From an uncultured Saprospiraceae bacterium (GTDB lineage Bacteria > Bacteroidota > Bacteroidia > Chitinophagales > Saprospiraceae): a stretch of DNA of 64,000 nt. The notes under the pieces were generated by a model that did not search any database, was not told where the DNA came from, and was given only the letters and a program-made list of their open reading frames with translations. The translations under genes were made by a program, and so were the position numbers. Below, piece by piece: positions 3,735 through 42,270 of this stretch (position 1 is its first letter; each line of letters opens with the position of its first letter). The stretch lies in NCBI GenBank assembly GCA_964428345.1, contig CAYRYD010000014.1, positions 28,514-92,513 of the forward strand. Direction: 5' to 3'.

Positions 3735-5366
<1,632 letters not shown>

Positions 5367-5382
5367 TCAATCTAAAAGGGCG

Positions 5383-5390
5383 CAAAAGTA
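5383..5390 (-). promoter_or_regulatory. candidate -7 box TACTTTTG for the ABC-F gene
   Basis: Exact TAnnTTTG match on the minus strand, 19 nt upstream of the ATG at 5363. No clear -33 element seen. Confidence 0.3.
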
Positions 5391-5560
5391 ATCAAATCGA
5401 ATGACTTGTTTACTAATTCATTGAAAATTAATCTCTTATGCTTAAAAATGGATACTGGGCAGTGATTCAGATCAAAAAAAGCGGATTTTCAGTCACGATA
5501 AAACCACTTTTCAATGTTCATATCCACAGAATGATCAACTTTGCAGCAAACCAGTGAAAA

Positions 5561-5782
5561 ATGATGGAGTCCGGCAAAATGGATGGCAGAATCCGGAAAA
5601 ACATTCATACCGGTTTGTTGGTGGAGATTGTCCAGAAGAAAGACCAGCACACCGGTATACTCACGGAAGGCTTGGTGAGAAGAATCCTCACCAATGCTCC
5701 CCATCATCCGCATGGTATCAAAGTGCAACTGGATACCGGAGAAGTGGGGCGGGTGAAAAACATCCCGGAGGACCAGGACTAA
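5561..5782 (+). CDS. YwbE family small protein
   Basis: 73-aa ORF with ...TGLLVEIVQKKDQHTGILTEGLVRRILTNAPHHPHGIKVQL.TGEVGRV. Closely resembles B. subtilis YwbE as I recall it. The start may be one of the first three Met codons. Confidence 0.8.
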   Translation: MMESGKMDGRIRKNIHTGLLVEIVQKKDQHTGILTEGLVRRILTNAPHHPHGIKVQLDTGEVGRVKNIPEDQD

Positions 5783-5840
5783 ATGATCTTTCCCTATCTT
5801 TCTAAAGGAACTCAAACTACAAAGTCCTGAATCGCTTAAA

Positions 5841-7058
5841 ATGAACCTGAAATTGTCTGGCCGGGCCCTGTTGTCCATGCAAAAATGGAGAAAAATGATC
5901 CCATTTATTGCATCAATCTTAATGCTCCCCTCATGTAACAGCGGGAGGATGAATCACCCTTCCTGGACTTTCGTAAGCATACCGGATTTCCTGAATGTCG
6001 ACTGTGATTTCCCGCAGGAAGGATGGGAAGATGGCCTCTCCTTCATCCTCCAATCGGTCAATAAGGAAAATCCCGACTTTATTGTGATACCCGGAGATCT
6101 GGTGATGGGCCATTGGGATGACCCGGAATGGGATAGTGCCGATACGATCGCCAAATATGCCCATCGCTATTACACTGCCTGGATCGCAAGAATGAAACAT
6201 CATGATTTAAAATACTACACCTCGGTTGGCGATCATGAAATGGGAGATAATCCATGGAGAGACTCCACCAAACTCGCTTCTCTATCCCATTACCGCAAAG
6301 CATTCAGGGATTACCTGCAAATGCCTCTAAACGGTCCGGACCATTTGAAGGGTACCGCCTTTTGGTGGCGACATAAAAATGTACTCTTTATCTCCGTTGA
6401 TGTTTTTGAAGAAGGACAGAGTGATCAGGGTTTGATAAAAGCAGGAGTGTCAGGCCGTCAATTGCGATGGTTAAAGCAAGTCCTGGAAGAAAATAAGGAC
6501 ATTCAGCATAAAATAGTAATAGGACATACACCGATTTTTGGACCGGTCAGAAAATGGAGTTCGAGTGGACTGATGATTGAAGAAGGCCGGGATTCCGGAT
6601 TTTGGCAGGCCATGAAATCTTATGGGGTTGATGCCTATCTGTGTGGCGAAGTACATGCCATCACCTGTACTGAGCGCGATGGGATCATGCAAATCGCCCA
6701 TGGAGGTCTGATCGGTTATAATACGCGCACCAACTATATGGTAGTGAAGGTTTCGGGAAATAAAATTGATTTTGAAATCAAGGAAATTGAAATCATGCCA
6801 TCGGGTGAACATCTCTGGCAAACAAAAACTAATCGTCCGTTGGAAAGAGTCACCATACACGAATCAGACAAATCTGCCGGTTTCTACCTGGTAGGTACGG
6901 CGACCCTTTATCAAGACCGGGAAAATAAGTTTGTCAACCGTAAGGGATATTTTAATCCGGCATATGAGTTTAGTACAGATCAGGCAGCACCGGTATTCAG
7001 GAAGGGCACACGGCCGGGCATTGTTACTGAGTTGCCAAAGATTGTGGTAGAACCTTAA
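5841..7058 (+). CDS. calcineurin-like metallophosphoesterase, probable lipoprotein
   Basis: 405-aa ORF with motifs GDLVMGHWDD, GDHEMGDN, GHTPIFGP and GEVHAITC. N-terminal MIPFIASILMLPSC looks like a lipobox, so the true start is probably an internal Met. Confidence 0.8.
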   Translation: MNLKLSGRALLSMQKWRKMIPFIASILMLPSCNSGRMNHPSWTFVSIPDFLNVDCDFPQEGWEDGLSFILQSVNKENPDFIVIPGDLVMGHWDDPEWDSADTIAKYAHRYYTAWIARMKHHDLKYYTSVGDHEMGDNPWRDSTKLASLSHYRKAFRDYLQMPLNGPDHLKGTAFWWRHKNVLFISVDVFEEGQSDQGLIKAGVSGRQLRWLKQVLEENKDIQHKIVIGHTPIFGPVRKWSSSGLMIEEGRDSGFWQAMKSYGVDAYLCGEVHAITCTERDGIMQIAHGGLIGYNTRTNYMVVKVSGNKIDFEIKEIEIMPSGEHLWQTKTNRPLERVTIHESDKSAGFYLVGTATLYQDRENKFVNRKGYFNPAYEFSTDQAAPVFRKGTRPGIVTELPKIVVEP

Positions 7059-7730: not shown

Positions 7731-8372
7731 TTGACTGAAACGCCTGCCGGATCAGGGGTTAAAAAACTTGTTAATTTTGTTTACCTAACTTCAGTAATTC
7801 ATATTAAGCCTTGGAAATTGGTCAGGACCGACGATGAAATTATAAAGTCAATCAGAGAAGGAAGGAACGATGGCATTGTTTATTTGTACTCCACTTACCG
7901 TAAGGAGTTTTGTCAGTGGGCGGTAAAGCATTATCCGGCAGATCACGATCTCGCACAGGATGCTTTTCAGGAAACCATGCTGGCGTTCCGTTTTAATCTG
8001 GTGCATAACCGGATTGGGGAGATGAAGAGTACGTTAAAAACATATTTGTTTGCGATCGGAAGAAATCAATTGATAAACCGTTTGAAAAAGCGTCGTCACG
8101 AAATATCCAGCGATGACCTGGCCCTCCTGCAACATCAGCAACCCATGGCAAAAGGAGACCCGGAGGAGTTGACCGATCGACAGGAAAGGATCAAAAAGCT
8201 GATCAAAAATATGGAAGAGCCCTGCCATTCCATCCTGAAAATGTTTTACTATCTGGGATATTCAATGGATGTCATTGCCCAACGAATGGACTATAAAAAT
8301 GAAGATGTCGCTAAAAGTCAAAAAGCACGATGCATAAAAAAAATCAGAGAGGCATTGACAGCCTACCGATAA
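7731..8372 (+). CDS. sigma-70 family (ECF-type) RNA polymerase sigma factor
   Basis: Region 2-like DLAQDAFQETMLAFRFN...YLFAIGRNQLINRLKKRRHE and region 4-like CHSILKMFYYLGYSMDVIAQRMDYKNEDVAKSQKARCIKKIREAL. The track start is TTG; the true start is uncertain and may lie up to about 90 nt downstream. Confidence 0.85.
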   Translation: MTETPAGSGVKKLVNFVYLTSVIHIKPWKLVRTDDEIIKSIREGRNDGIVYLYSTYRKEFCQWAVKHYPADHDLAQDAFQETMLAFRFNLVHNRIGEMKSTLKTYLFAIGRNQLINRLKKRRHEISSDDLALLQHQQPMAKGDPEELTDRQERIKKLIKNMEEPCHSILKMFYYLGYSMDVIAQRMDYKNEDVAKSQKARCIKKIREALTAYR

Positions 8373-8384
8373 AACTATAATCAA

Positions 8385-9107
8385 ATGGAATATCCGGAAG
8401 AATACATGCGGGACTACCTGCTGGGGAAACTTCCACCAGAAGAGGCAAAACGTCTGGAGCAAAATCTCGATGAAGATCCTGAACTTGCGGAGGCATTGGA
8501 ACTGCAAAGAGACATCCTGCTGGCTATCCAGTCACGTTTTGACGAAGAATTACTGGAAAAACTCCGGGATACTCACCAACAGCAACCGGGTAAAATCCGG
8601 TCAGTATCTTCCCGGGTTCTTTGGCAGTGGGCCAGTGCCGCCGCCCTGCTTCTCGGATCACTGGGGGTGTATCTGTATATGAGTCAAACGTCACCGGAGG
8701 AGCGGATTTTCATGGCATATTTCGAAGACTATCCCAACATTATCGCACCCGTTCAGCGGGATACACCAGGGACAGAAGGTTTCTCGGCTTATCAGAATGG
8801 TCAATATCAGGAAGCATTGGAGATCTTTGAAAGACAGGAGCAGGGCGATTCGCTGGGTGCATATCCTTCCTTTTATAAGGGAATTTGTGCCATGCATCTC
8901 GAAGACTGGTCAACCGCCATCCAGTCCTTTGAAAAGGTCAGGTCTACTGGTGACCACCGATTTGAAGAGGCAGCCGCATGGTATGTCTCCCTGGCCTATC
9001 TGAGGGCAGGAAACCGGGAAAGGGCAGAATTAATTTTACAGTCCATTGCCGATACCGGTAGTGATTACCGCGCGGATGCACAGGCACTTCTGCGTGATTT
9101 AGACTAA
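8385..9107 (+). CDS. single-pass membrane anti-sigma-factor-like protein with a periplasmic TPR-like domain
   Basis: 240-aa ORF starting 12 nt after the sigma gene. The N-terminus YLLGKLPPEEAKRLEQNLDEDPELAEALELQRDI is the motif commonly seen downstream of Bacteroidota ECF sigmas. One TM helix (VLWQWASAAALLLGSLGVYLYM). The C-terminal helical repeats look TPR-like. No zf-HC2 motif. Confidence 0.55.
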   Translation: MEYPEEYMRDYLLGKLPPEEAKRLEQNLDEDPELAEALELQRDILLAIQSRFDEELLEKLRDTHQQQPGKIRSVSSRVLWQWASAAALLLGSLGVYLYMSQTSPEERIFMAYFEDYPNIIAPVQRDTPGTEGFSAYQNGQYQEALEIFERQEQGDSLGAYPSFYKGICAMHLEDWSTAIQSFEKVRSTGDHRFEEAAAWYVSLAYLRAGNRERAELILQSIADTGSDYRADAQALLRDLD

Positions 9108-9134
9108 CTTTATCACTAGCAAACATGAAGACTC

Positions 9135-12100
9135 ATGAGAAGAGGCCACCGGATCCGGCCTTCCATGCTATCGATAATTCGCATCACCTTTCTGATTTGT
9201 TGGTCAGGCATTGCTTTTACCCAACCAGCGGATTCGCTGTATCAGCTGGCTCGTCAGGCATTTACCGACCGGAATTTTGACCAGGCATACCAGACGTACG
9301 AACAAGCCGGTCAAGCATTTCTGGTCAGCGAAGAATGGACCCGGTACCTGCAATGTCGTGTGGAGATGGCCCGCTGCAGCCAGTTTACCAGTTCTGTAAG
9401 CCGGCAGGCTATTCAGCAAATCCTCGATCCGGCAATGGACCTGATGGAAAAGCATCCTTCAGTGCAGCAATCGGTTGAAGCTATCCAGTGCCACCAGTTT
9501 CTGGCCCGGTATTATTGGGCGATCGAAGGTAACTATGCGTCGGCGATTGAATCCTACCAAAAATCGCTGGACCTGGCTGAGACATTGGGTGACACTGCCC
9601 GCTATTACCGGATGTCATCGCTGGCTGATCTCAGTCATGTGTACAGTAATCAGGAAGAGTTTGATCAGGCACTGGACTGTGCTACCAGCGCTTTGGAGCT
9701 TTCCAGGGAAATATACGGTGATGACCACGTTGAAAATGGTCCACGGTATTATGATCTGGGTTTTACCTACTACCGGAAAGGTTACTTTGACCAGGCTATC
9801 CGGCAAATTCGACAAGGCATTCAAATCCTTGAGGAAAATCAGGGTCCGGAGATGCAGATCGGATTGGGATACAATCACCTGTCAGCCGTCTATGTTGCCA
9901 AACTGGATCATGAGGAGGCTTTACAGAGTTCCCGGGCCGCCGGACAGATCCTGTCTAATTATCTGGGACCTGACCATGAAGCCCTGGCCAATATTTACTG
10001 GGACCTCGGAGTCATGTATACCGATCTGGAAATGTATGAACCGGCAGAAGAAAATCTGAGAAAAGCGGCAGCACTCTTCCAAACCAATTTTGGACCTTCC
10101 TATCCGCAGTTTCCCCAACTGTATCATCAACTTGGCTACTGCTACAATCAGATGGGTCGTTATAGAGAAGCCGAAAAATGGCACCAGGATGCTTATGAGT
10201 TGAATCTCATGACCTATGGCCCACAACATCCCCGCACCGGCGAATCTTACCGCCAACTGGCCAACCACTATAACTCAGAAGGTAATGTGAAACAAGCTGG
10301 TTGGGCAATCAGCAAAGGTCTCGAAATTGTCGGGGCTGCCGGAAATCAATCCAATGTATTACGAGCAGGCATATTTAGCGAACAGGCCAGGCTCCTTAAC
10401 CATCAGCATCAGTACTATGATGCGGTAGATTCCTATGATAAGGCACTTCAGGCGATTATACAGCCAACCGGAACGGGTGAAGAATTGACCAGCGACCAAA
10501 CATTCAATCCCCTGTATTTTACGGAATTCAACAGTGAGAAAGCTAAAAACCTGTTTCTGGCTTTCCGGCAGGATCAGGATGAAACCTCACTGACCAGGGC
10601 ATTATCTGCCGCCCGGCAGGCACATAACGGTATAAGGCGGCTTCGCCATTCCTATCAGAATGCCGGCTCCAAACTTTTTATGCAGAAAAGAGCCAGAGAG
10701 CATTACGACCTCATGCTCGATATCCTCTTTGAATTCCGGAAAATTACACAGGACGAATCCCTTCTGGCAGAAGCCTGGCAAATCACTGAACAGGCCAAAT
10801 CACTGCTGCTTCTGGAGGAAATCAAAGCCGCAGACCTGATTTTCCCGGGGATACCTGAAAAATCAATCGATACCTTAAAAAATCTAAGAAAGGATCTTAG
10901 TCAACTGCAACAAAGGATTAACGAACACCTGACCGAAGGTGATACCAATGGTTTGACCAGAAAACAGCGGAATTTTTTTTCCACTCAAAATAAATTGATC
11001 CTTTTTGACAACCAACTATCGGAAAAATATCCGGAATATAAATCCATACAAAACGAATTGTCGCCGGTAGATATCTATGAAATTAGCGCCAACTTATTAC
11101 CCGGCCATGTTTTGCTGGAATACTACCTGGCCGATACTGCTCTCCATATTTTTACCCTGGACAGAAAGGAAATTCATTGGGAGAAAAAATCATTGCCATC
11201 TGATTTTGAAAACAGGATTCAAGCCGTGATCAGGGAGAGCCGCGATCTGGAAAAAATCGTACAAAGTCCGCAGCAGGCCCTGAATGATTATCGTGATGAA
11301 GTCCGGCAATTATCGCATTACGTATGGCCTCTCGAGACGCTAAATCATCTTGACGCAGTAGAAGATATCATCATCATTCCGGATCAGGAGCTGGGTTACA
11401 TTGCCTTCGAATCCTTAACTTCCTCTCCGGATGAAAAATATCTTATCGAAAAGTATACCATCAGTTATGCCTACTCCGCTTCATTATATCACCGGGAGAT
11501 TACCAGGGCTGATCAAATTTCCCGGATCAATTATGCCGGTTTTGCCCCTGACTATGCACTTCAGGACAGCTCGACCATAAAGCAGGATCTGGCAATGGTG
11601 CAGCTATACCGGGAGGGCCTGTTTGATCTGCCGGGAGCTCAGAAGGAAGTGGGACAGATCGGCACCCTGTTTAACGGTAAAACCTGGTTGGGTGAGGCGG
11701 CAACCAAAGCTGTTTTCAAGGCAGAAGCCCCCCATTACTCTCTATTGCATCTGGCCCTGCATGGTATCATTGATGAGCAGGAACCGATGCGATCCCGCTT
11801 GCTTTTCTACAACGGGAGTCCGGATGACAATGGAGCATTGAATGCTTATGAAATCTACAACCTTGACCTTCGGGCCAACCTCGCGGTCCTAAGCGCCTGT
11901 AATACCGCTTCCGGATCTCTTCAATCTGGTGAAGGTATTCTCTCCCTGTCCAGAGCTTTCGCCTTTGCAGGCATACCCAATATGGTGGCCAGTCTCTGGC
12001 GGGCAGACGATGCAGCATCTTCAGAAATCATGATCGGATTTTACCGGGGGCTCGCCGGAGGTCTGACTAAGAGCAAGGCCTTACAACAAGCCAAACTGCA

Positions 12101-12281
12101 GTTTATTGGGGATCAAAAAACAAAAACCTATCAGCATCCCTATTTCTGGTCTTCTTTCATTCTTATCGGTGAAAATACCAGCACATTTGCCCGGTCATCC
12201 TACCGGCTATGGTGGGTTGCCGGTATTATCCTCCTTATCATCACTTTCATCTACATGCAGCAAAGAAAAAACCGGGTATAA
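9135..12281 (+). CDS. exported TPR-repeat CHAT-domain (caspase-like) protein with a C-terminal membrane anchor
   Basis: 1048-aa ORF with an N-terminal signal-like segment (LSIIRITFLICWSGIAFTQP) and several hundred aa of TPR-like repeats. The C-terminal CHAT core has HLALHG (His876, 11760-11762) and LAVLSACNTASG (Cys922, 11898-11900). Final TM helix WWVAGIILLIITFIYM followed by QQRKNRV. Confidence 0.9.
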   Translation: MRRGHRIRPSMLSIIRITFLICWSGIAFTQPADSLYQLARQAFTDRNFDQAYQTYEQAGQAFLVSEEWTRYLQCRVEMARCSQFTSSVSRQAIQQILDPAMDLMEKHPSVQQSVEAIQCHQFLARYYWAIEGNYASAIESYQKSLDLAETLGDTARYYRMSSLADLSHVYSNQEEFDQALDCATSALELSREIYGDDHVENGPRYYDLGFTYYRKGYFDQAIRQIRQGIQILEENQGPEMQIGLGYNHLSAVYVAKLDHEEALQSSRAAGQILSNYLGPDHEALANIYWDLGVMYTDLEMYEPAEENLRKAAALFQTNFGPSYPQFPQLYHQLGYCYNQMGRYREAEKWHQDAYELNLMTYGPQHPRTGESYRQLANHYNSEGNVKQAGWAISKGLEIVGAAGNQSNVLRAGIFSEQARLLNHQHQYYDAVDSYDKALQAIIQPTGTGEELTSDQTFNPLYFTEFNSEKAKNLFLAFRQDQDETSLTRALSAARQAHNGIRRLRHSYQNAGSKLFMQKRAREHYDLMLDILFEFRKITQDESLLAEAWQITEQAKSLLLLEEIKAADLIFPGIPEKSIDTLKNLRKDLSQLQQRINEHLTEGDTNGLTRKQRNFFSTQNKLILFDNQLSEKYPEYKSIQNELSPVDIYEISANLLPGHVLLEYYLADTALHIFTLDRKEIHWEKKSLPSDFENRIQAVIRESRDLEKIVQSPQQALNDYRDEVRQLSHYVWPLETLNHLDAVEDIIIIPDQELGYIAFESLTSSPDEKYLIEKYTISYAYSASLYHREITRADQISRINYAGFAPDYALQDSSTIKQDLAMVQLYREGLFDLPGAQKEVGQIGTLFNGKTWLGEAATKAVFKAEAPHYSLLHLALHGIIDEQEPMRSRLLFYNGSPDDNGALNAYEIYNLDLRANLAVLSACNTASGSLQSGEGILSLSRAFAFAGIPNMVASLWRADDAASSEIMIGFYRGLAGGLTKSKALQQAKLQFIGDQKTKTYQHPYFWSSFILIGENTSTFARSSYRLWWVAGIILLIITFIYMQQRKNRV

Positions 12282-12367
12282 AAATTTTTCCCTGAGCAGT
12301 TTACCTTTTCCGGATTGAAACTATTAAGGGTGACAAACAACTTTTTAAACCTCTTAAAAGTATCGAC

Positions 12368-12646
12368 ATGAAAAGGAATTACCTGATAATGCTGCCTTTA
12401 ATCGTCACCCTGATTTTTACCAGTTGCCGGAAATCGGTTGGAGATGATCCGGGAGACTGCATGGTTCATATTGAGAAGGTCAATACTTCACTCAATGACT
12501 ACATCAATGAGCCGTCGGTCGAAAATTGCAAAGCATATCTCAATGCCATACGGTCATACATCAAATCGAATGCATGTTTTGGTAACATCTTTTTTGATGA
12601 ATATCAGCGGGCCTTGAAAGAACTGGAAGACGATGAATGCAACTAA
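12368..12646 (+). CDS. small Cys-rich lipoprotein, unknown function
   Basis: 92-aa ORF with lipobox LIFTSC and four further Cys residues; lies 86 nt downstream of the CHAT gene on the same strand. Confidence 0.5.
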   Translation: MKRNYLIMLPLIVTLIFTSCRKSVGDDPGDCMVHIEKVNTSLNDYINEPSVENCKAYLNAIRSYIKSNACFGNIFFDEYQRALKELEDDECN

Positions 12647-20009: not shown

Positions 20010-20280
20010 TTCACTTTGGCCGGACAGAGTCCGTAACTAGTGGATCTGTTCTCCTGCTCCGGACAGAGTCCGGAGCTACTGATTATGTTCTCCTGCTCCG
20101 GACAGAGTCCGGAGATACTGGATTGTTCTCCTGCTCCGGACAGAGTCCGGAGTTACTGGATTGTCCTCTTGCTCCGGACAGAGTCCGGAGATACTGGATA
20201 TGTTCCCATGCTCCGGACAGAGTCCGGAGCTACTGGATCTGTTCTCCTGCTCCGGACAGATCCGGCGCTACCGGATATTT
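20010..20280. repeat. tandem array of about 7 copies of a 38/39-bp unit, each carrying a perfect palindrome
   Basis: Unit consensus: GTTCTCCTGCTCCGGACAGAGTCCGGAGnTACTGGATnT. Five well-conserved copies lie at 20048-20086, 20087-20124, 20125-20162, 20163-20201 and 20202-20240, with degenerate end copies at about 20010-20047 and 20241-20280. Each unit contains CTCCGGAC-AGA-GTCCGGAG (8-9 bp stem, 3-nt loop). There are no spacers. Confidence 0.9.
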
Positions 20281-21347
20281 CAGACAATGAGTACCGAATG
20301 AATCGGGGGCAAAAAAGCCTGGGCATGTTTCCAGGTGGTACCATCATCTGCCGAAATAAACAGGTTACCGGTAGTGGTGCCAAAAACCATCAATCCATTC
20401 TTTCGGTCGAAAGCGTGACGAAAAACCAGATCAAAGCAATGTTCCTGAGGCAGGCCGGTGGTTTGCTTTATCCAGGTCTTTCCCCCGTCTTCGGTTTTGC
20501 AAACCACCAGCCGCAGATCTTTGGCTACCCGCTGATCGTCACTTTCTGCGGGAATGATCCAGGCTTTGAGAGGATCCGTATCGTCAATGACAATGGGAAA
20601 ACCATAGCGACCATACTGATCTTCCGGGGTAACATCCTCCCAGGATTCGGCAGCATCATGACTGATAAAAACACCGCAATGATTTTGTTGCCAGATGGTG
20701 TCCGGATGTTGCCGGCATAACCTGATCGCATGAGGATCGTGGCCATAGGGACCATGGGGATCCGGGAGGTAATCAGCCCTCAGACCCCGATTCTTGGGTG
20801 ACCAGGTCAAGCCGCCATCCCGTGAAACATACACGCCGCCGCAGCTGACTCCGATCAACAGGAAATCCGGATCATCCGGATGGTCCAGGATCGTATGGAT
20901 ACCTGCATGATTTCTGCCTCCCCCAAACCAGTGTTCAACCCGGGTGGGGTGATCCCAAAGCGATTCATTGAGCTGAAAGGTGACACCACCATCACGGCTC
21001 TCAAACAACCCCCCGGGTTCGGTACCTACCCAGAGTTTTCCCTGACGGTCATGGTAAAGGGCGCTCCAGATCAAACGCAGGGTTGCCGGTTTGCCCGGTC
21101 CAATCATGCTCCCTTCCGGATATAGGGGCGCTGCCACTTCCTGCCATTTCCGGCCTGCATCGTCTGACCGGAAAAGTTTGGGTCCCCAGTGCTTCATTGA
21201 CAATCCAATCCACATCATGCCGGTATTTCCATCCTGATGGATCATCGACACCGGCAACCCCCTGAAATCCAAACCTTCGAGGTGAATGCCGTCATTCCGG
21301 TATCCAAATTCCAGCAATCCTTTCGTAGTACCCAGCAAAATCTTCAT
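20280..21347 (-). CDS. BNR/Asp-box repeat beta-propeller protein (Ycf48/sialidase-like fold)
   Basis: 355-aa ORF with repeated SxDxGxTW-type Asp-boxes: SDDAGRKW, SRDGGVTF, SRDGGLTW, TEDGGKTW, SADDGTTW. Confidence 0.8.
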   Translation of the reverse strand: MKILLGTTKGLLEFGYRNDGIHLEGLDFRGLPVSMIHQDGNTGMMWIGLSMKHWGPKLFRSDDAGRKWQEVAAPLYPEGSMIGPGKPATLRLIWSALYHDRQGKLWVGTEPGGLFESRDGGVTFQLNESLWDHPTRVEHWFGGGRNHAGIHTILDHPDDPDFLLIGVSCGGVYVSRDGGLTWSPKNRGLRADYLPDPHGPYGHDPHAIRLCRQHPDTIWQQNHCGVFISHDAAESWEDVTPEDQYGRYGFPIVIDDTDPLKAWIIPAESDDQRVAKDLRLVVCKTEDGGKTWIKQTTGLPQEHCFDLVFRHAFDRKNGLMVFGTTTGNLFISADDGTTWKHAQAFLPPIHSVLIV

Positions 21348-21410
21348 CGGTCAGTACATTGTTTGCGAAAGGTAAACATTCAATGGACTAAAATCCAATT
21401 ATCGCTGCGG

Positions 21411-37272: not shown

Positions 37273-40200
37273 ATGAAGGCAGGAAAAATTACGAAGATAG
37301 GTCTCGTTATAGTTGCATCCCTGCTGGCCATTCTTCTTGCTTTGTTCCTGCTGATCCAGTTTTCTGCAGTCCAGACTTTGGTTGTCCGATATATTGCCGA
37401 TAACCTCTCGGCCACTTTGGGCACCACGGTCCGGGTTGAAAAGGTCCGGCTAAAATTTTTTAAGACAGTATCCCTGAAAAATGTCTACATCGAAGACCTC
37501 CAGGGCGACACTTTACTATATGCCGGTCAGATCGATGGCAGCATCGGGTTATTCAGTCTCCTGGGCAAAAAATTAACCTTCGATGAAATTTCGCTGGCTG
37601 ACATTTATTTTCAGTTAAAAAGAAAACAAAACGAACCCCAATTCAACCTTCAGTCTATCATTGATCATTTTTCATCCGGCGAGCCTTCCGGGGGAAAACC
37701 CTGGGCATTCAACCTCGAAAAACTAAAAATCACCGACAGTAAGTTGCTGATCGAAGATCAATTTTCTGGTCAGATGATTGCTTCCGATATCGGATCGCTG
37801 GGATTATATCTTGACCGGTTTAGTCCTTCTGAAAAACTGATAGCTATCCGCCAGCTTGGTCTGGGAGATTCCAGAGTGATGATCCGTCAAACCCGTGCCG
37901 GTGAACGCTCAACGGAGGTTGATACTGCTACCGGATTTATCTTTCCCAACACCGGATGGACATTTTCGGCCGAACAGATACGGCTGGATGAAAATGAATT
38001 TATGTATAAGGTTGGAAATCCGGAAAAGCCCACTCATCTGAATTTTCAGAACCTTCAAATGGAGGAGATCTCCTTTTTTGCCGATAACTTTTCCTGGTCT
38101 GAAAATGATTTCCGAGCCACCATTACCCGGTCGACGTTCAGGGATCACAGCGGGTTCATTCTGGAAAATCTTTCGGGTGATTTTGTCGCCAGTCCACATG
38201 ACGTCAGTCTGGTCAAACTGGAACTAAAAACTCCCCATAGCCACATAAATCAGCAAACACATATTACGCTATCCGATTTGAGTAAAGCCCGTTATTTTAC
38301 TGACAGCGTTCATCTTACCGCCAAATTTAATGATGCCATAGTCGATTATCAGGATCTAAGATTAATAATACCTGATTTTACACAAATTGCCTTTCTCAAC
38401 ACCCACCTGCAGGAAAAGATACATCTCACGGGCACCTTAGAGGGTTATGTCAATAATCTGGATTTCAAACAAATTCAGGTCCGGGCTGGAAATCTCGTGT
38501 ATATCCATTTGAATGGATCATTGATTAATATCACCAGACCAGGGGCCATCCGTTTTTCACTGGCACTCAACCAACTAAATACCTCGTACAATTCGATCCG
38601 GCAACTGACCAGAAACATCCCGGTATCACCCGGACTGGCTTACTGGCAAGACTTTAAATTGTCCGGGCAATTCCGGGGGAATTTCAATAATATTTCAGGT
38701 AGCCAGGTAAAGCTGGAAACCGGTAGTGTAACCCGGTTTGATGGCGATTTTGACATTAAGGGTCTCTCCTACCCTGAAACCGCTTTTTTTGATATTACCG
38801 TTCGGGATCTGCGCAGCATTGCAGAAGACCTCAAGGGTTTTAGTGCAAATCCACTACCTGCAGCACTCGACAGTCTTGGACAATTTTATTACGCCGGCAC
38901 TTTTCAGGGTACCATTCACGATTTTCGGCTGAATGGTCAGCTTGCCTCGGATGCAGGCCGGCTGCGTACCGATATCAAAATGAACTTTGACTCAAACTAT
39001 ACGGATGCCAGCTACAGCGGTGACCTGGCACTGGATTCATTCAATCTGGGCAAAGTGTTGAGTATGCCAGACCTCGGATATCTCACCATGGATATCAATG
39101 TCTTTGGCAATGGATTAAAAAGTGATGTGCTGAGAGCCACGGTTCTGGGAGAAGTGGAAGATCTTGAATTTCGGGGATATCACTACCATGATTTGCTCAT
39201 CGACGGCCGTTTTGACAAGCGGCAATTTGCCGGTCATGCTTCCATCGATGATCCGAACGTGGCCTTTGATTTTGAAGGTCTGGTACATCTCGACGACTCG
39301 TCTTCAAGATTCAGATTCCGGGCCGTTGTAGATACCATTGATTTTAATGCCTTACAATTTCTGCCGATGAAATTGGGTATGAAGGGCTATCTGGAAGCCG
39401 ATTTCAGCGGTTCATCACCAGATGATGTCAAAGGGATGATTCTGGGTACCCGGCTCCAATTCTCCAATCTCACCGACCGTTATCAGCTGGATTCATTTTT
39501 ATTATTATCCGATTTTAGTCAGCAAAACGAGCGCAGACTCGAGATTCAGTCTGATCTGGCAGCGGGAATCCTTCAGGGAGAATTTAGCCTGGAAGGTCTC
39601 TCCCGATATTTCTCCTCTTATACCAACAAGTATTTTCCAATCAGACTGGAAGATATAACCCTGGACACGTTTTTGACCGAAGGCGATTCCCTGGTTGCCG
39701 TCCCGCTTCAGCAGGACTTTACCTTTGACATCAACCTTTATCATATCGACAGATTGTTGGGTTTAGCCATATCCGCCATTGAAAAAATGGACACCATCCA
39801 ATTGAATGGGCAAATAAAGAGCCGCCAAAATTACCTTCAAATTAATGGGTATGCCCATCAAATCATCTATAATGGAATGTCTTTTGGTCCGTTAACCATC
39901 CTGTCGCAGGGAGATGAACACCATTTTAACAATGCACTCACCATCAACAATGCCCATATTGCCAAAGGTGTTGAGTTCCCCTCCATTCATCTGGATGCTA
40001 CACTGGTTAATGACAGCATGTATCTGGGATTACTGCTGGAGGACCAATACGATACCATCCTGAAAAAATTAGACCTGGCTGCACTGATGACCGCCGAAGA
40101 TGCCCAATACAAACTGCAGCTAAATAATAATATGGTACTCAATGGCAGAGACTGGCAGGTCACCCCGCATCATCAGATCACCTTGAAGAACGGTAAATTT

Positions 40201-42270
40201 TTCATCGAAAATCTCGAACTCCGGCACGACGATCAGCTTCTCAAAGTGGCCAGCCGGGAGATTCAACCATCCGATGATTTTTTATCAGCCTTTTCCTTTG
40301 ATTTTGAAAATTTCCACCTCAGTGAAATCAGCCAGTTGCTGGATGTGAAGGATGCTTTCTACACCGGAGAAGTCAATGGAAATTTTACCTTGAGAAACAT
40401 GGAAAAGACCGTCAACTATCTGGCAGATCTGACACTGAATGATCTGACCTTACGCAATGAACGCATCGGAGATTTAGTCATTAAGTCGCAGCAACGCACC
40501 AGTGACATCATCGATGTCCTGGTGCGACTAGACGAAGGCATCGGTGCCCTGGATGTCCGGGGTACTTACAACCGTCTAAACAGTGAAATTGATATTCAGG
40601 GTGAAATAGACCAACTGGAGTTGAAAAATCTGGATCCCTTCTTAAAGAAATATCTGACCGGCAGCAAAGGAAAGATTTCCGGAACGGTCCGCCTGGGAGG
40701 TACTTCCGGTGTACCAATCATTGATGGGAATCTTGAGCTGGAAAAAGTATCAACCCTGATCAACTACCTGCAGGCCAGATACACTTTTGTCAATGAAGAT
40801 ATCGCCGTCCGGCAGAATAAAATGACTTTCCGAAATTTCACCATCCTGGATGAAACTGGTAACCAGGCTACCATTAATGGTGTGGCCGATTTTAAATCCA
40901 TCACTGATCCAACGCTTGATCTGAAATTCAACACTTCCCGGTTTTTAGTGCTTAATACACCCGCCAATTCCACAGACTTTTATTATGGAAAGTTATTGGT
41001 GGATGCGGATGTTGAAATGACCGGCAGACTGAGCACACCCATTTTACAAGTCAATGCCAAAACTCTTGACGGCACGGATTTTGTACTTCAACCACTGGTA
41101 TCGCAGGCCAGGGTTCAGCAGGAAGATTTTATCATTTTTGCCAATCCGGAAGATTATCAATATGACACTACCATATCATTACAAGACTTTTATAAGATTT
41201 CCGGGTACAATTTTGATGTTTCGGCAAATATCGAAGCTACGCCGGACGCCCAACTGACGATTGTCATCGATCCGGGTACCGGTGACAAACTGGTCTGCCG
41301 GGGAACTGGTAACCTCGCTATTGATATTTCCCCGGATGGAGATCCGAAAATACTGGGCAATTACATTATTTCCAATGGGCAATATGCCTTTAATTTCCAA
41401 CGGGTATTAAAACGAACATTTGAAATTGAACCTGGTAGCCGGGTAGATTTTGTCGGTGATATTTTTAAATCCAAATTCGATATCTCTGCCTCTTACCATG
41501 TACAGACATCAACCTACGAACTGATTAAAAATCAAAGCACCCTCAATCCTACCGAAGAAACCCGGTCCAGACAGCGATCGGATGTTGCCGTACAATTGTA
41601 CCTCACGGGCACCCTGGAACGGCCGGTGGCAAAATTTGATATCACCATCGAAGACAAATCGGGCAATGGATTAACCAGTACGGTTGCCAGTAAGTTAGCC
41701 CAGCTGCGTGAAGATGAATCCAGTATGAACAAGCAGGTTTTCGGCCTCTTAATCTTCAATAGTTTTATTGCCGAACAGCAAACGACCAGTGCCTCCCTCC
41801 TTGCTGATGCCAGTCAATCAGTGATTTTATCCAGCGTCAGCAACCTGCTCACCAATGAGCTCAACAGGCTGGCCAAGCGATACATCAAAGGGATTGATTT
41901 GGATTTTGGAGTTGCATCCTACAGTGGCAGATTTGAGGAAGGAAGTGGAGTCATTACCGAGTTGAAAGTTGGTTTGAGTAAAAGATTACTCAATGACCGG
42001 TTGAAAATCAAACTTGGAGGGAACGTTCAATTTCAAAATAACGAGGATATCAGTCTGGTTAACAATCAAAATTCTACTTTTTCAGGAGACTTCGTGCTTG
42101 AATACCAACTGACACCCGATGGAAATTACAATCTGCGTTTCTTTCAGGTGCTTTCAAATGAAGAAAACTTCTTTAACCCGGGAGCCAATTACTCGGAAAC
42201 CGGTGCTTCCATCTTCTTTACCAAATCATTTAACAGCAAAAAATACCAACTCCAGCTTGATGAACAATAA
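37273..42270 (+). CDS. tamB: translocation and assembly module protein TamB (DUF490 family)
   Basis: 1665-aa ORF with a single N-terminal TM anchor (IGLVIVASLLAILLALFLLIQF) and a long beta-rich body. The C-terminal region resembles DUF490. It is immediately followed by, and overlaps, an Omp85 gene. Confidence 0.88.
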   Translation: MKAGKITKIGLVIVASLLAILLALFLLIQFSAVQTLVVRYIADNLSATLGTTVRVEKVRLKFFKTVSLKNVYIEDLQGDTLLYAGQIDGSIGLFSLLGKKLTFDEISLADIYFQLKRKQNEPQFNLQSIIDHFSSGEPSGGKPWAFNLEKLKITDSKLLIEDQFSGQMIASDIGSLGLYLDRFSPSEKLIAIRQLGLGDSRVMIRQTRAGERSTEVDTATGFIFPNTGWTFSAEQIRLDENEFMYKVGNPEKPTHLNFQNLQMEEISFFADNFSWSENDFRATITRSTFRDHSGFILENLSGDFVASPHDVSLVKLELKTPHSHINQQTHITLSDLSKARYFTDSVHLTAKFNDAIVDYQDLRLIIPDFTQIAFLNTHLQEKIHLTGTLEGYVNNLDFKQIQVRAGNLVYIHLNGSLINITRPGAIRFSLALNQLNTSYNSIRQLTRNIPVSPGLAYWQDFKLSGQFRGNFNNISGSQVKLETGSVTRFDGDFDIKGLSYPETAFFDITVRDLRSIAEDLKGFSANPLPAALDSLGQFYYAGTFQGTIHDFRLNGQLASDAGRLRTDIKMNFDSNYTDASYSGDLALDSFNLGKVLSMPDLGYLTMDINVFGNGLKSDVLRATVLGEVEDLEFRGYHYHDLLIDGRFDKRQFAGHASIDDPNVAFDFEGLVHLDDSSSRFRFRAVVDTIDFNALQFLPMKLGMKGYLEADFSGSSPDDVKGMILGTRLQFSNLTDRYQLDSFLLLSDFSQQNERRLEIQSDLAAGILQGEFSLEGLSRYFSSYTNKYFPIRLEDITLDTFLTEGDSLVAVPLQQDFTFDINLYHIDRLLGLAISAIEKMDTIQLNGQIKSRQNYLQINGYAHQIIYNGMSFGPLTILSQGDEHHFNNALTINNAHIAKGVEFPSIHLDATLVNDSMYLGLLLEDQYDTILKKLDLAALMTAEDAQYKLQLNNNMVLNGRDWQVTPHHQITLKNGKFFIENLELRHDDQLLKVASREIQPSDDFLSAFSFDFENFHLSEISQLLDVKDAFYTGEVNGNFTLRNMEKTVNYLADLTLNDLTLRNERIGDLVIKSQQRTSDIIDVLVRLDEGIGALDVRGTYNRLNSEIDIQGEIDQLELKNLDPFLKKYLTGSKGKISGTVRLGGTSGVPIIDGNLELEKVSTLINYLQARYTFVNEDIAVRQNKMTFRNFTILDETGNQATINGVADFKSITDPTLDLKFNTSRFLVLNTPANSTDFYYGKLLVDADVEMTGRLSTPILQVNAKTLDGTDFVLQPLVSQARVQQEDFIIFANPEDYQYDTTISLQDFYKISGYNFDVSANIEATPDAQLTIVIDPGTGDKLVCRGTGNLAIDISPDGDPKILGNYIISNGQYAFNFQRVLKRTFEIEPGSRVDFVGDIFKSKFDISASYHVQTSTYELIKNQSTLNPTEETRSRQRSDVAVQLYLTGTLERPVAKFDITIEDKSGNGLTSTVASKLAQLREDESSMNKQVFGLLIFNSFIAEQQTTSASLLADASQSVILSSVSNLLTNELNRLAKRYIKGIDLDFGVASYSGRFEEGSGVITELKVGLSKRLLNDRLKIKLGGNVQFQNNEDISLVNNQNSTFSGDFVLEYQLTPDGNYNLRFFQVLSNEENFFNPGANYSETGASIFFTKSFNSKKYQLQLDEQ

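Follow-up and report, generated by a model that had tools for sequence, protein, structure and literature searches.

An ECF sigma factor, a membrane anti-sigma-like protein and a predicted exported TPR-CHAT protease encoded in one gene cassette of a Saprospiraceae-like bacterium

Among the signalling devices of Bacteroidota, ECF sigma factors rank first in number, yet few of their triggers are known. A locus found in a 64-kb stretch of DNA (hereafter the window) raised the question whether a caspase-fold protease, encoded next to an ECF sigma factor and a membrane anti-sigma-like protein, could serve as such a trigger. If so, site-1 proteases in the regulated proteolysis of anti-sigma factors would gain a new class. 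The locus also offers a testable function for the exported TPR-CHAT proteins of bacteria, which are very abundant and uncharacterised.

Gene layout and encoded proteins

Segment 7731-12646 of the window contains four ORFs, all on the plus strand: the longest ORF of the sigma factor (7731-8372), the ORFs of the anti-sigma-like protein (8385-9107, 240 aa) and of the TPR-CHAT protein (9135-12281, 1048 aa), and that of a Cys-rich lipoprotein (12368-12646, 92 aa). The ORF coordinates gave gaps of 12, 27 and 86 nt between these co-directional genes, as described in the initial annotation, which had also placed the locus outside any CRISPR context. Consistent with the latter, neither a spaced repeat array nor CRISPR/cas, Cas7-11 or other defence genes were found within the 64-kb window, and no CBASS/CRISPR defence island or regulon was present near the cassette. 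Of the PADLOC models only a generic TPR model matched in the window, without any other defence-family match. The large ORFs of the window code for TamB, Omp85, FG-GAP/ASPIC and SusC/SusD proteins, the TamB, FG-GAP and SusC ORFs being the largest. The genes flanking the cassette are housekeeping genes, and they differ between orthologous loci. The locus is best explained as an envelope-signalling cassette on the chromosome of a Saprospiraceae-like member of the Bacteroidota.

The first gene codes for an ECF-type factor of the sigma-70 family. The sigma70-ECF model TIGR02937 matched residues 50-209 of the long ORF with 66.1 bits (cutoff 42.9), and Sigma70_r2 scored 23.7 bits, slightly below its cutoff of 24 (E 4.3e-5). 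The ECF assignment of the initial annotation was thus upheld by TIGR02937. Rather than at TTG 7731, the gene probably starts at TTG 7818 (7818-8372, plus strand, 184 aa), because the alignments of orthologues begin there and because the longer ORF would include a conserved promoter-like element (7779-7808). As in group IV ECF factors, the protein consists of the sigma2 and sigma4 regions only, its length is within the range of ~170-220 aa and it matches the superfamily model. The gene of the cognate anti-sigma factor follows directly downstream, after the 12-nt gap. At every locus where both genes were detected as a pair, they were adjacent and co-directional.

The product of the second gene (8385-9107, plus strand) is a single-pass anti-sigma-like protein. 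Its residues 6-103 matched NF052375 (E 1e-9) and PRK13920 (E 4e-9), both under the curated cutoffs. In the AF2 model (pLDDT 78.5; residues 66-73 and 125-128 are of low confidence) a predicted cytoplasmic N-domain of three helices (residues 1-65) is followed by a TM helix (residues ~75-101), a flexible juxtamembrane linker (residues ~102-130) and a predicted periplasmic domain of three TPRs (residues 131-239), in which residues 131-238 also matched TPR families. An N-terminal helical domain followed by one TM helix is the arrangement of class I anti-sigma factors, and the profiles and the model bear out the layout first proposed for this protein. Among 41 relatives, Y11, G14 and F24 are conserved. 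Cys/His zinc ligands (HxxxCxxC or CHCC) are absent from residues 1-65, which places the protein outside the ZAS group; lacking Cys and His, the N-domain is therefore no CHCC zinc domain. In structure, the C-domain resembles the TPR domain of YbgF/CpoB (TMt 0.83) and SycD/IpgC/PcrH. The linker carries the clade-conserved motif FPNIIxPVQRD, of which PVQRD is kept in the close clade only and not family-wide. Proteins of this architecture make up at least 1,075 clusters (50% identity, E<=1e-30). The middle protein is an ordinary combination of N-terminal anti-sigma domain, TM helix and periplasmic TPRs, and by its profile matches it does not appear to be Csx30-like.

The third gene (9135-12281, plus strand) encodes a protein that, judged from PF12770, the AF2 model and hydrophobicity, is predicted to be an exported caspase-fold cysteine protease with an anchor in the inner membrane. 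A signal peptide was predicted at residues 1-29 (hydrophobic segment 10-29) with cleavage between T29 and Q30 (AFT, then Q). It is followed by a TPR/helical array (residues ~30-640, matched by TPR_12 and TPR_10) and by the CHAT domain (residues 723-1013, nt 11301-12173), which matched positions 4-289 of the 289-position profile PF12770 with E 1.6e-60. The putative catalytic dyad consists of His876 in HLALHG (nt 11760-11762) and Cys922 in SACNTASG (nt 11898-11900). A C-terminal TM helix (residues 1023-1043, nt 12201-12263, within the hydrophobic segment 1021-1043) precedes the basic tail QQRKNRV, and in the model only ~10 residues separate it from the end of the CHAT domain at residue 1013. His876 and Cys922 lie where the initial annotation had put them, and CHAT, sigma70-ECF and TPR profiles matched the respective proteins.

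Both dyad residues were invariant in alignments of 13 and of 18 homologues and were conserved in at least 90% of the sequences of a 56-sequence alignment. They align with the catalytic pair of CHAT proteases of solved structure, namely with H862/C907 of DdvA and with the corresponding HG and AC(E) motifs of Csx29. The dyad motif is kept by 84 of the 88 family members and the C-terminal TM helix by 79, and an N-terminal hydrophobic segment was found in 63 of 76 full-length CHAT relatives. The AF2 model had pLDDT 90 and pTM 0.87, and its best Foldseek matches in the PDB were Csx29, separase and DdvA. With its intact, conserved dyad the protein is a putative cysteine protease. Export was predicted from hydrophobicity, the positive-inside rule and the A/T-then-Q cleavage context only. 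Together with the models these predictions place the CHAT domain and the C-domain of the anti-sigma-like protein in the same compartment, the periplasm, as had been anticipated.

The fourth gene (12368-12646, plus strand) encodes a lipoprotein with the signal MKRNYLIMLPLIVTLIFTS followed by the lipobox Cys. Four further Cys residues probably form two disulfides; all five are kept in the orthologues of loci L001-L003. The lipoprotein had no matches in Pfam, NCBIfam or PADLOC, a word-based search yielded one near-identical match, and among the 88 loci surveyed the protein was confined to the close clade. In other clades eight small ORFs were found, each within ~0.5 kb of a CHAT gene, which have the double-glycine (GG) leader signature LSxxELxxIxGG and acidic or Pro-rich tails. 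In five of the eight a TTACC-type box lies at most 140 nt upstream. These peptides matched no family, were recognised as GG-leader peptides by the motif only, and are unrelated in sequence to the lipoprotein.

Conservation of the cassette and of a promoter-like element

If the three larger genes work together, they should remain neighbours in other genomes, and a survey of Bacteroidota had been proposed for this purpose. The four-gene cassette is kept, between different flanks, in L001-L003, with orthologues 45-63% identical (46-50% for the CHAT protein). The triad of sigma, anti-sigma and CHAT genes persists in L004-L006 and L008 at 23-26% full-length identity, with CHAT-domain identities of 33-36% for L004-L006 and 30% for L008; it is co-directional in L006 and convergent in L004, L005 and L008. 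In total, an adjacent pair of sigma and TPR-anti-sigma genes was present in 35 of 80 loci from GTDB species genomes. When the count was limited to the 46 species-level loci whose flanks reach at least 3 kb to either side, the pair was found in 24, in 15 of them at most 300 nt from a CHAT gene. By our own estimate, any ECF gene would occur in such flanks by chance in ~6% of cases, genomes of ~5 Mb being assumed; the mean for Bacteroidetes is 22.5 ECFs per genome (PMC7826278). Conversely, in a search starting from a relative of the anti-sigma-like protein the sole informative contig also had a convergent CHAT gene. Triads were found in Saprospiraceae, Cytophagales, Bacteroidales, Lentimicrobiaceae, Chitinophagales and Flavobacteriaceae. 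The genes thus adjoin in related and distant genomes, in shuffled orientations. About half of the CHAT genes of the family with adequate flanks had no sigma/anti-sigma pair within 7 kb, and locus L007 has tandem CHAT paralogues without a sigma gene. For these two reasons, the CHAT protease family also has sigma-independent roles.

A second line of evidence came from the intergenic DNA. Comparison of four orthologous loci revealed, ahead of the sigma gene, a promoter-like element, GTTTACCT-N15-TATTAAG (7779-7808, plus strand). A motif search, combined with the orthologues, located a second copy of GTTTACCT-N15-TATTAAG at 12299-12328 (plus strand), 69 nt ahead of the lipoprotein gene. The bipartite motif GTTTACCT-N15/16-TATWAAG precedes both the sigma and the lipoprotein gene in all four loci. 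GTTTACCT is located 39-42 nt ahead of the sigma start in each of them, and in L001, L002 and L003 the element lies 31-92 nt ahead of the orthologue of the small gene. A 13-nt block, TTTTGTTTACCTA, is identical across the four loci, the rest of whose intergenic DNA is unalignable. Only three copies of GTTTACCT occur in the 64-kb window. In the family, a related box was found upstream of 15 of 52 sigma genes (0.5% expected, ~57-fold enrichment). In L036, L038 and L070 operons whose last gene or neighbour is the CHAT gene are preceded by second sigma-type boxes. The element at 7779-7808 is a candidate autoregulated promoter of the sigma factor of the cassette. In part, the box is similar to TAnnTTTG, the general -7 motif of Bacteroidetes.

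Possible roles of the TPR-CHAT protein

The reading that we favour, tentatively and with a probability of about 0.42, is suggested by analogy with DdvA: the cassette may be a DdvA-like module divided between two proteins, whose membrane-tethered CHAT protease would act on the anti-sigma factor in trans. The single-pass anti-sigma factor would hold the ECF sigma factor at the inner membrane, and expose to the periplasm a flexible linker followed by a small TPR domain of the peptide-binding type. The TPR-CHAT protease, exported by its Sec signal peptide, would be tethered by its C-terminal helix to the outer face of the same membrane. On sensing of a protein or peptide cue by the TPR arrays, the CHAT protease would clip the anti-sigma factor in its juxtamembrane or periplasmic part (site-1 cut), after which a site-2 protease and cytoplasmic proteases could release the sigma factor. 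Once free, the latter would transcribe the operon to which it belongs, including the protease gene, and, from matching promoters, the lipoprotein gene, thereby creating a feedback loop. The low-confidence linker with a clade-conserved motif, which directly follows the TM helix in the AF2 model of the anti-sigma factor, speaks for this reading. Further support comes from the domain and dyad assignments, the conserved linkage of the genes in L001-L006, L008 and the wider survey, the DdvA precedent, the short distance between CHAT domain and TM helix, the retention of this helix and of the dyad motif across the family, and the element that precedes both the sigma and the lipoprotein gene. As points against it we counted the CHAT genes without a sigma pair, the sigma-type boxes that precede CHAT genes in several relatives, as would also be expected of an output gene, and the limitation of PVQRD to one clade.

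In the main alternative, the CHAT protease would be an output of the system. The TPR domain of the anti-sigma factor would sense the cue, generic envelope proteases would release the sigma factor, and the CHAT protease and the lipoprotein would be the main regulon, serving inducible periplasmic proteolysis, e.g. quality control, processing of exported proteins, or envelope self-destruction or defence. Genes adjoining ECF operons are often their targets. We count the position of the CHAT gene within the sigma operon of the window in favour of this alternative, as we do the promoter-like element common to the sigma and lipoprotein genes, the sigma-type boxes of L036, L038 and L070 and the many CHAT paralogues without a nearby sigma gene. 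At several points it fits the data equally well as the split module. We regard it as somewhat unlikely. The DdvA fusion points to TPR-CHAT on the input side; the linkage to one specific family of periplasmic-TPR anti-sigma factors has survived repeated rearrangement; convergent layouts are kept although co-transcription is impossible there; and in the models the membrane tether keeps the active site near the anti-sigma linker.

In a further alternative the anti-sigma factor is not a substrate of the CHAT protein. The latter could mature or degrade a small exported partner, namely the Cys-rich lipoprotein in the clade of the window and the GG-leader peptides in relatives, and the product would be read by the TPR domain of the anti-sigma factor in an autocrine or quorum-like loop. 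Or, it could be a protective co-receptor bound to the anti-sigma factor, as RseB shields RseA. The accompaniment of the CHAT gene by a small exported product in different clades, the sigma-type promoter-like element of the lipoprotein gene, the eight GG-leader ORFs near CHAT genes (five with a TTACC-type box) and the fold of the anti-sigma C-domain, which is that of 3-TPR peptide binders (SycD/IpgC/PcrH, Hop/RPAP3), speak for this alternative. However, the GG-leader assignment derives from a motif without family match, double-glycine peptides as a rule depend on a C39 ABC exporter, and there is no sequence relationship between lipoprotein and peptides; the invariant dyad speaks against a purely non-catalytic role. 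Taken together, the two variants appear distinctly unlikely.

The split-module reading can be extended to the proposal that Bacteroidota widely use a co-encoded periplasmic TPR-CHAT protein as signal-activated site-1 protease, the cue being a small exported protein or GG-leader peptide made from the sigma factor's own promoter. In this general form we consider it rather unlikely. If the cue were indeed such a peptide, the cassette would be a self-contained envelope circuit for quorum or damage sensing, of a kind undescribed in Bacteroidota.

Comparison with known systems

In the type III-E CRISPR system (craspase), Csx29 cleaves Csx30, which binds RpoE (PMC10028731). The initial annotation had taken this circuit as the analogy, and the TPR-CHAT fold and the ECF sigma factor common to both stood up to the profile searches and the model. 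The analogy is not the best one: by its profile matches the middle protein appears to be an ordinary membrane anti-sigma factor and not a counterpart of Csx30, and the protease is predicted to be exported, not cytoplasmic. Sigma release linked to protease activity belongs to craspase; in the cassette it is a proposal. Craspase is cytoplasmic and RNA-guided, it needs Cas7-11 and a CRISPR array, and Csx30 is not a membrane anti-sigma factor. Within the 64-kb window the CHAT gene has no adjacent Cas7-11/gRAMP gene or array, and the middle protein had no PADLOC match. That the cassette is a CRISPR-less remnant or relative of the Csx29-Csx30-RpoE circuit, acting as a phage-defence switch, is highly improbable. 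For it speak the best structural match, Csx29 (8eey_B, Foldseek E 7.5e-17, TMt 0.54), and the presence of an ECF sigma factor in both systems. Against it, the window contains no defence genes, the protease has a predicted signal peptide and membrane anchor unlike cytoplasmic Csx29, the middle protein has the make-up of a classical membrane anti-sigma factor, the housekeeping flanks differ between orthologues, and in sequence-profile comparison of the CHAT domain Csx29 (E ~0.1) is weaker than DdvA (E 2.3e-4).

In regulated intramembrane proteolysis (RIP) of the E. coli RseA-DegS-RseP type, as in the cassette, a single-pass anti-sigma factor would have to lose its periplasmic part before a site-2 protease can act, and accessory periplasmic proteins set the trigger. 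The site-1 step is performed there by a PDZ serine protease; RsgI and FecR-type anti-sigma factors undergo non-enzymatic self-cleavage. In the cassette a co-encoded caspase-fold cysteine protease is proposed for this step. Separase of the separase-securin system resembles the cassette protease in combining a helical array with a CHAT domain and a catalytic dyad (Foldseek E ~1e-16 to 1e-10), but it is eukaryotic, cytoplasmic or nuclear, differently regulated and without a link to sigma factors.

The closest known system is DdvA-DdvS of Myxococcus xanthus, not craspase; it had been overlooked in the initial annotation and is the direct precedent. In DdvA, the partner of the sigma factor DdvS, a single polypeptide carries the anti-sigma domain, the TM helix and, in the periplasm, TPR-CHAT. 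Removal of TPR-CHAT exposes DdvA to RseP, and the authors of that study propose the CHAT domain as site-1 protease, which is unproven. DdvA (8rot_B) was the best PDB sequence-profile match of the CHAT domain, with the dyads aligned. Both systems combine an ECF sigma factor with a cytoplasmic anti-sigma domain at the N-terminus, one TM helix and a flexible linker, and in both a TPR array precedes a CHAT domain with a His-Cys dyad; linker and TPR-CHAT are periplasmic in DdvA and predicted to be so in the cassette. The same site-1-protease logic is proposed for both. DdvA lacks a three-helix active-site insert. In the cassette, a stop codon and 27 nt separate two genes, and all orthologues are likewise split; accordingly, there are two proteins, one with anti-sigma domain, TM helix, linker and three TPRs (240 aa) and one with signal peptide, TPRs, CHAT and TM helix (1048 aa). 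Further differences from DdvA are the anti-sigma domain without Cys/His, the CHAT protein's own C-terminal membrane anchor, the extra small lipoprotein, the absence of a CBASS/CRISPR regulon nearby and the host phylum, Bacteroidota; DdvA-like proteins have been reported only from Myxococcota and one Comamonas species. Because protease and putative substrate are separate proteins, each of which can be mutated or titrated on its own before the two are mixed, the split cassette would be more tractable than DdvA for testing cleavage of an anti-sigma factor by a periplasmic CHAT protease. The pairing of an anti-sigma factor with a periplasmic CHAT domain is known from DdvA, and the two-gene split in Bacteroidota is a variant of it.

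Gene organization of the cassette

The cassette at 7731-12646 of the window consists of four genes on the forward strand. The ECF sigma factor gene (7731/7818-8372, +) matched TIGR02937 with 66.1 bits (cutoff 42.9), and the match of its product to Sigma70_r2 was borderline. It is followed by the gene for a 240-aa anti-sigma-like protein (8385-9107, +), in which anti-sigma models, all scoring below their curated cutoffs, covered residues 6-103 and TPR families residues 131-238. The third gene (9135-12281, +) encodes the 1048-aa TPR-CHAT protein (PF12770, E 1.6e-60), whose CHAT domain (residues 723-1013) is preceded by a long TPR_12/TPR_10 array. The last one is an ORF call for a small, 92-aa lipoprotein (12368-12646, +), for which no match was found in Pfam, NCBIfam or PADLOC. 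The ORF coordinates confirmed the co-directional arrangement and the gaps of 12, 27 and 86 nt described in the initial annotation. The sigma start at TTG 7731 probably needs revision. Because the orthologue alignments begin at TTG 7818, and because an element with conservation of the non-coding type (7779-7808) lies inside the longer ORF, TTG 7818 is most likely the start codon. The cassette has a GC content that is ordinary for the window. It is preceded by genes for a thiopurine-methyltransferase-like protein and a metallophosphoesterase and followed by a small ORF with two TM segments and a DUF1569 gene. A search for an intrinsic terminator 3' of the lipoprotein gene was negative.

As stated before, there is no CRISPR context: the 64-kb window contains no array and no cas-like or defence-family genes. 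The only notable tandem repeat, a 39-nt unit with the internal palindrome CCGGACAGAGTCCGG, occurs 6.7 times head to tail at 20020-20278 and fills the region between two genes on the minus strand. It has no spacers and was rejected as a CRISPR array. At 37273-44608 a TamB-like gene (1665 aa) overlaps an Omp85/POTRA gene by ~150 nt. These two are an ordinary envelope-biogenesis pair, and the long ORF, being TamB-like, was excluded as a Cas7-11 candidate.

Predicted structure of the protease and the anti-sigma protein

His876 (HLALHG) and Cys922 (SACNTASG) were found at the positions claimed for the dyad of the CHAT protein. Neither residue varies in the alignments of 18 CHAT domains and of 13 full-length relatives. 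Among the matches listed, 84 of 88 CHAT proteins contain the dyad motif and 79 of 88 a C-terminal TM helix. A phmmer comparison of the whole protein with the PDB retrieved nothing but TPR proteins, kinesin light chain among them; DdvA, an anti-sigma factor of Myxococcus xanthus, and Csx29 were reached only with a domain profile. With the CHAT-domain profile the best PDB sequence match was DdvA (8rot_B, E 2.3e-4), Csx29 chains being weaker (E about 0.1). In this alignment His876 and Cys922 fall on H862 and C907 of DdvA, which form the catalytic dyad according to the DdvA paper. The AlphaFold2 model of the CHAT protein, computed from a 56-sequence alignment, was confident (pLDDT 90, pTM 0.87), and the PDB structures closest to it were Csx29 (E 7.5e-17), the separases of human and yeast, and DdvA (E about 1e-12).

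The N-terminus of the CHAT protein consists of a basic stretch followed by a hydrophobic segment (residues 10-29). At the corresponding position the orthologues have canonical signal peptides that end in ...TFA|Q or ...PA|Q. Signal peptidase I substrates of Bacteroidetes reportedly prefer Gln at +1, and the ...A|Q context agrees with this preference. At the other end a hydrophobic helix (1021-1043) is followed by the tail QQRKNRV. In the model the CHAT domain ends at 1013 and the TM helix starts at 1023, which leaves ~10 residues to the membrane.

For the 240-aa protein the model (pLDDT 78.5) agrees with the topology proposed earlier, that is, a cytoplasmic N-domain, a single TM helix and a TPR-like C-domain. 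Three N-terminal helices, a TM helix (75-101) and a low-confidence linker precede a well predicted helical domain (131-239). The latter superposes on 3-TPR peptide-binding modules, namely the TPR of YbgF/CpoB (TMt 0.83, rmsd 1.6 Å) and SycD/IpgC/PcrH. With the N-domain of the anti-sigma protein placed in the cytoplasm, its C-domain and the CHAT ectodomain are both predicted to be periplasmic, which would place them in the same compartment, as had been proposed.

The anti-sigma family comprises at least 1,075 clusters at 50% identity (E<=1e-30), nearly all of 235-260 aa and matched end to end. An N-terminal motif, the TM helix and the TPR core including a WY pair are common to the homologues. 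The linker is flexible in the model and carries a clade-conserved motif in the alignment. This motif, PVQRD, was rejected as a universal cleavage site because it is not conserved family-wide. Variants of ~500 aa are encoded at L033 9774-11282 and L079 4193-5686, two of the surveyed loci, and occur among the family proteins as P0169, P0200, P0228, P0243, P0268 and P0269. Their C-terminal half matches the 240-aa architecture, and three stretches are matched in all, which points to an internal duplication or to an additional module at the N-terminus.

Conservation, linkage and promoter-like element

Close orthologues of the CHAT protein are 45-63% identical, one of them named as coming from a Saprospiraceae MAG, and the next ones fall to about 26%. 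The three orthologous loci, L001-L003, keep the four genes in the same order despite different flanks, as expected for conserved neighbours. The lipoprotein orthologues retain the lipobox Cys and four further Cys residues. In L003 BNR_4 genes are located just upstream of the sigma gene. In the same locus the anti-sigma gene is split into two ORFs (5265-5991; 76 and 143 aa), probably by a sequencing frameshift rather than by real pseudogene formation; the contig name indicates 2x coverage.

In four more distant loci (L004, L005, L006 and L008), whose CHAT domains are 30-36% identical to that of the window, the CHAT gene is found together with a sigma gene and a gene for a 246-283-aa anti-sigma homologue. 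L006 is co-directional, and in L004, L005 and L008 the sigma/anti-sigma pair is convergent with the CHAT gene. The linkage was surveyed in a sample of at least 80 Bacteroidota loci, one genome per GTDB species, with HMMs of the family (based on eight sigma and seven anti-sigma sequences) and a query alignment that mostly retrieves the membrane-anchored TPR-CHAT subfamily. The hosts included Saprospiraceae, Lewinellaceae, Cytophagales, Bacteroidales, Lentimicrobiaceae, Prolixibacteraceae, Chitinophagales, Aquimarina, Kordia and others. Among the matches listed, an adjacent co-directional sigma/anti-sigma pair was present in 35 of 80 loci, oriented opposite to the CHAT gene in 28 and in the same direction in 7. 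When the count was restricted to loci with flanks of 3 kb or more on each side, 24 of the 46 among the matches listed had the pair, in 15 cases within 300 nt of a CHAT gene. Bacteroidetes encode 22.5 ECFs per genome on average (PMC7826278). By our own estimate, assuming genomes of ~5 Mb, some ECF gene would occur in such flanks by chance in ~6%, and a chance pair with this anti-sigma family would be much rarer. On these counts chance was rejected as the reason why the three genes are adjacent. In the opposite direction, four anti-sigma relatives were used as starting points, and the one informative contig carried a sigma gene, an anti-sigma gene and a convergent gene for a 981-aa TPR-CHAT protein. 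Since the linkage persists through rearrangement across orders, these gene-order data are good evidence for a functional partnership.

Tandem TPR-CHAT paralogues, two or three per locus, were seen in L007, L014, L018, L029, L032, L058, L064, L073 and L080. L007 has two tandem CHAT genes and lacks a sigma gene, and in the available flanks of L007, L014, L018 and L029 there was no sigma/anti-sigma pair, indicating that the TPR-CHAT family also expands independently of sigma.

A TTTTGTTTACCTA block upstream of the sigma gene is identical in four orthologous loci, where the surrounding DNA is unalignable. There are just three copies of the octamer GTTTACCT in the 64-kb window, each of them upstream of a gene and on the same strand as that gene: at 7779 (+) before the sigma gene, at 12299 (+) before the lipoprotein gene, and at 21370-21377 (-), 23 nt before a BNR/sortilin-Vps10-like ORF (20280-21347, -; 355 aa). 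The last copy does not have the A-rich upstream stretch seen at the other two and may be a further sigma target or a chance occurrence. In each of L001-L003 copies of the octamer precede both genes, the sigma start by 39-42 nt and the small gene by 31-92 nt, and TATWAAG (once TAACAAG) follows 15-16 nt further on. In distant relatives a related box, GG(G)TTACCTTTT and then a GATAAAG-like sequence, is found ~30 nt before the sigma ORF. It is present at 15 of 52 sigma genes, compared with 0.5% expected from its density. The box overlaps partly with the general Bacteroidetes -7 consensus. A generic sigma-70 promoter scan gave hits at chance level. The element is a candidate for the promoter recognized by this sigma family, which would then be autoregulated, and the lipoprotein gene is a putative second target.

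In other clades the box occurs a second time, upstream of small ORFs (45-70 aa) with the double-glycine leader signature LSxxELxxIxGG and acidic or proline-rich tails. A regex search of 1.2 Mb of loci detected eight such ORFs (L070 6580, L079 1214, L007 2628, L023 6667, L033 6676, L049 202, L051 6128 and 6349), all eight within about 0.5 kb of a CHAT gene. Five of them have a TTACC-type box at most 140 nt upstream. No NCBIfam model matched these peptides. The second box of L036 and L038 lies before a gene for a ~400-aa exported protein, and the CHAT gene comes next. Because box-associated small exported genes recur across clades, a small exported product appears to be a recurrent fourth component, its identity depending on the clade. 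Exported NosD/beta-helix or PKD/beta-helix proteins are encoded beside sigma/anti-sigma pairs in unrelated loci (L008 4984-5703 and 11245-12252; L089 2761-5166; L093 702-2756) and are possible further regulon members.

Mechanism and comparison with known systems

The best-supported interpretation is that the cassette represents a split DdvA-like circuit. The exported, membrane-held CHAT protease would have the anti-sigma protein as its target, in the juxtamembrane or periplasmic part, the cut would license site-2 cleavage and thus release the sigma factor, and the freed sigma factor would raise expression of the whole cassette including the lipoprotein. This model is favoured by the fusion found in DdvA, by the specific, rearrangement-proof linkage, by the intact dyad and by the membrane geometry. 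The promoter data fit equally well with the main rival explanation, in which the protease and the lipoprotein are outputs of the sigma factor. As a third reading, the small exported partner may be the substrate that the protease processes, or the protease may serve as a co-sensor. A defence role derived from craspase is unlikely. The triad is widespread in Bacteroidota, and the mechanism proposed for it is hypothetical but testable.

The initial annotation recognized the combination of sigma factor, anti-sigma protein and CHAT protease, and this part of it stands. Its choice of craspase as the closest analogue, the type III-E system in which Csx29 cleaves Csx30, the protein that holds RpoE, does not, and the interpretation is supported in part. 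A literature search for CHAT in connection with ECF, anti-sigma or Bacteroidetes retrieved only the DdvA and craspase papers, and no published description of a split sigma/anti-sigma/CHAT triad in Bacteroidota was found. In its main text the ECF re-classification paper makes no mention of CHAT; an ECF-group description may already list CHAT neighbours.

The direct precedent is DdvA, whose periplasmic TPR-CHAT part has a His-Cys dyad and whose partner is the ECF sigma factor DdvS. The DdvA paper describes it as unique among characterised anti-sigma factors in having a TPR-CHAT domain, and reports DdvA-like proteins only from Myxococcota and one Comamonas species. Without its TPR-CHAT, DdvA becomes an RseP substrate. 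In the scheme proposed by its authors, the site-1 step is a signal-induced autoproteolysis of the linker by CHAT, which by their own account cannot yet be validated. The anti-sigma profile, compared with the PDB, retrieved generic TPR proteins only and no similarity to the scaffold region of DdvA, so the parallel is based on the architecture and not on homologous anti-sigma halves. In DdvA anti-sigma and TPR-CHAT are fused, whereas in the cassette described here they are two separate proteins.
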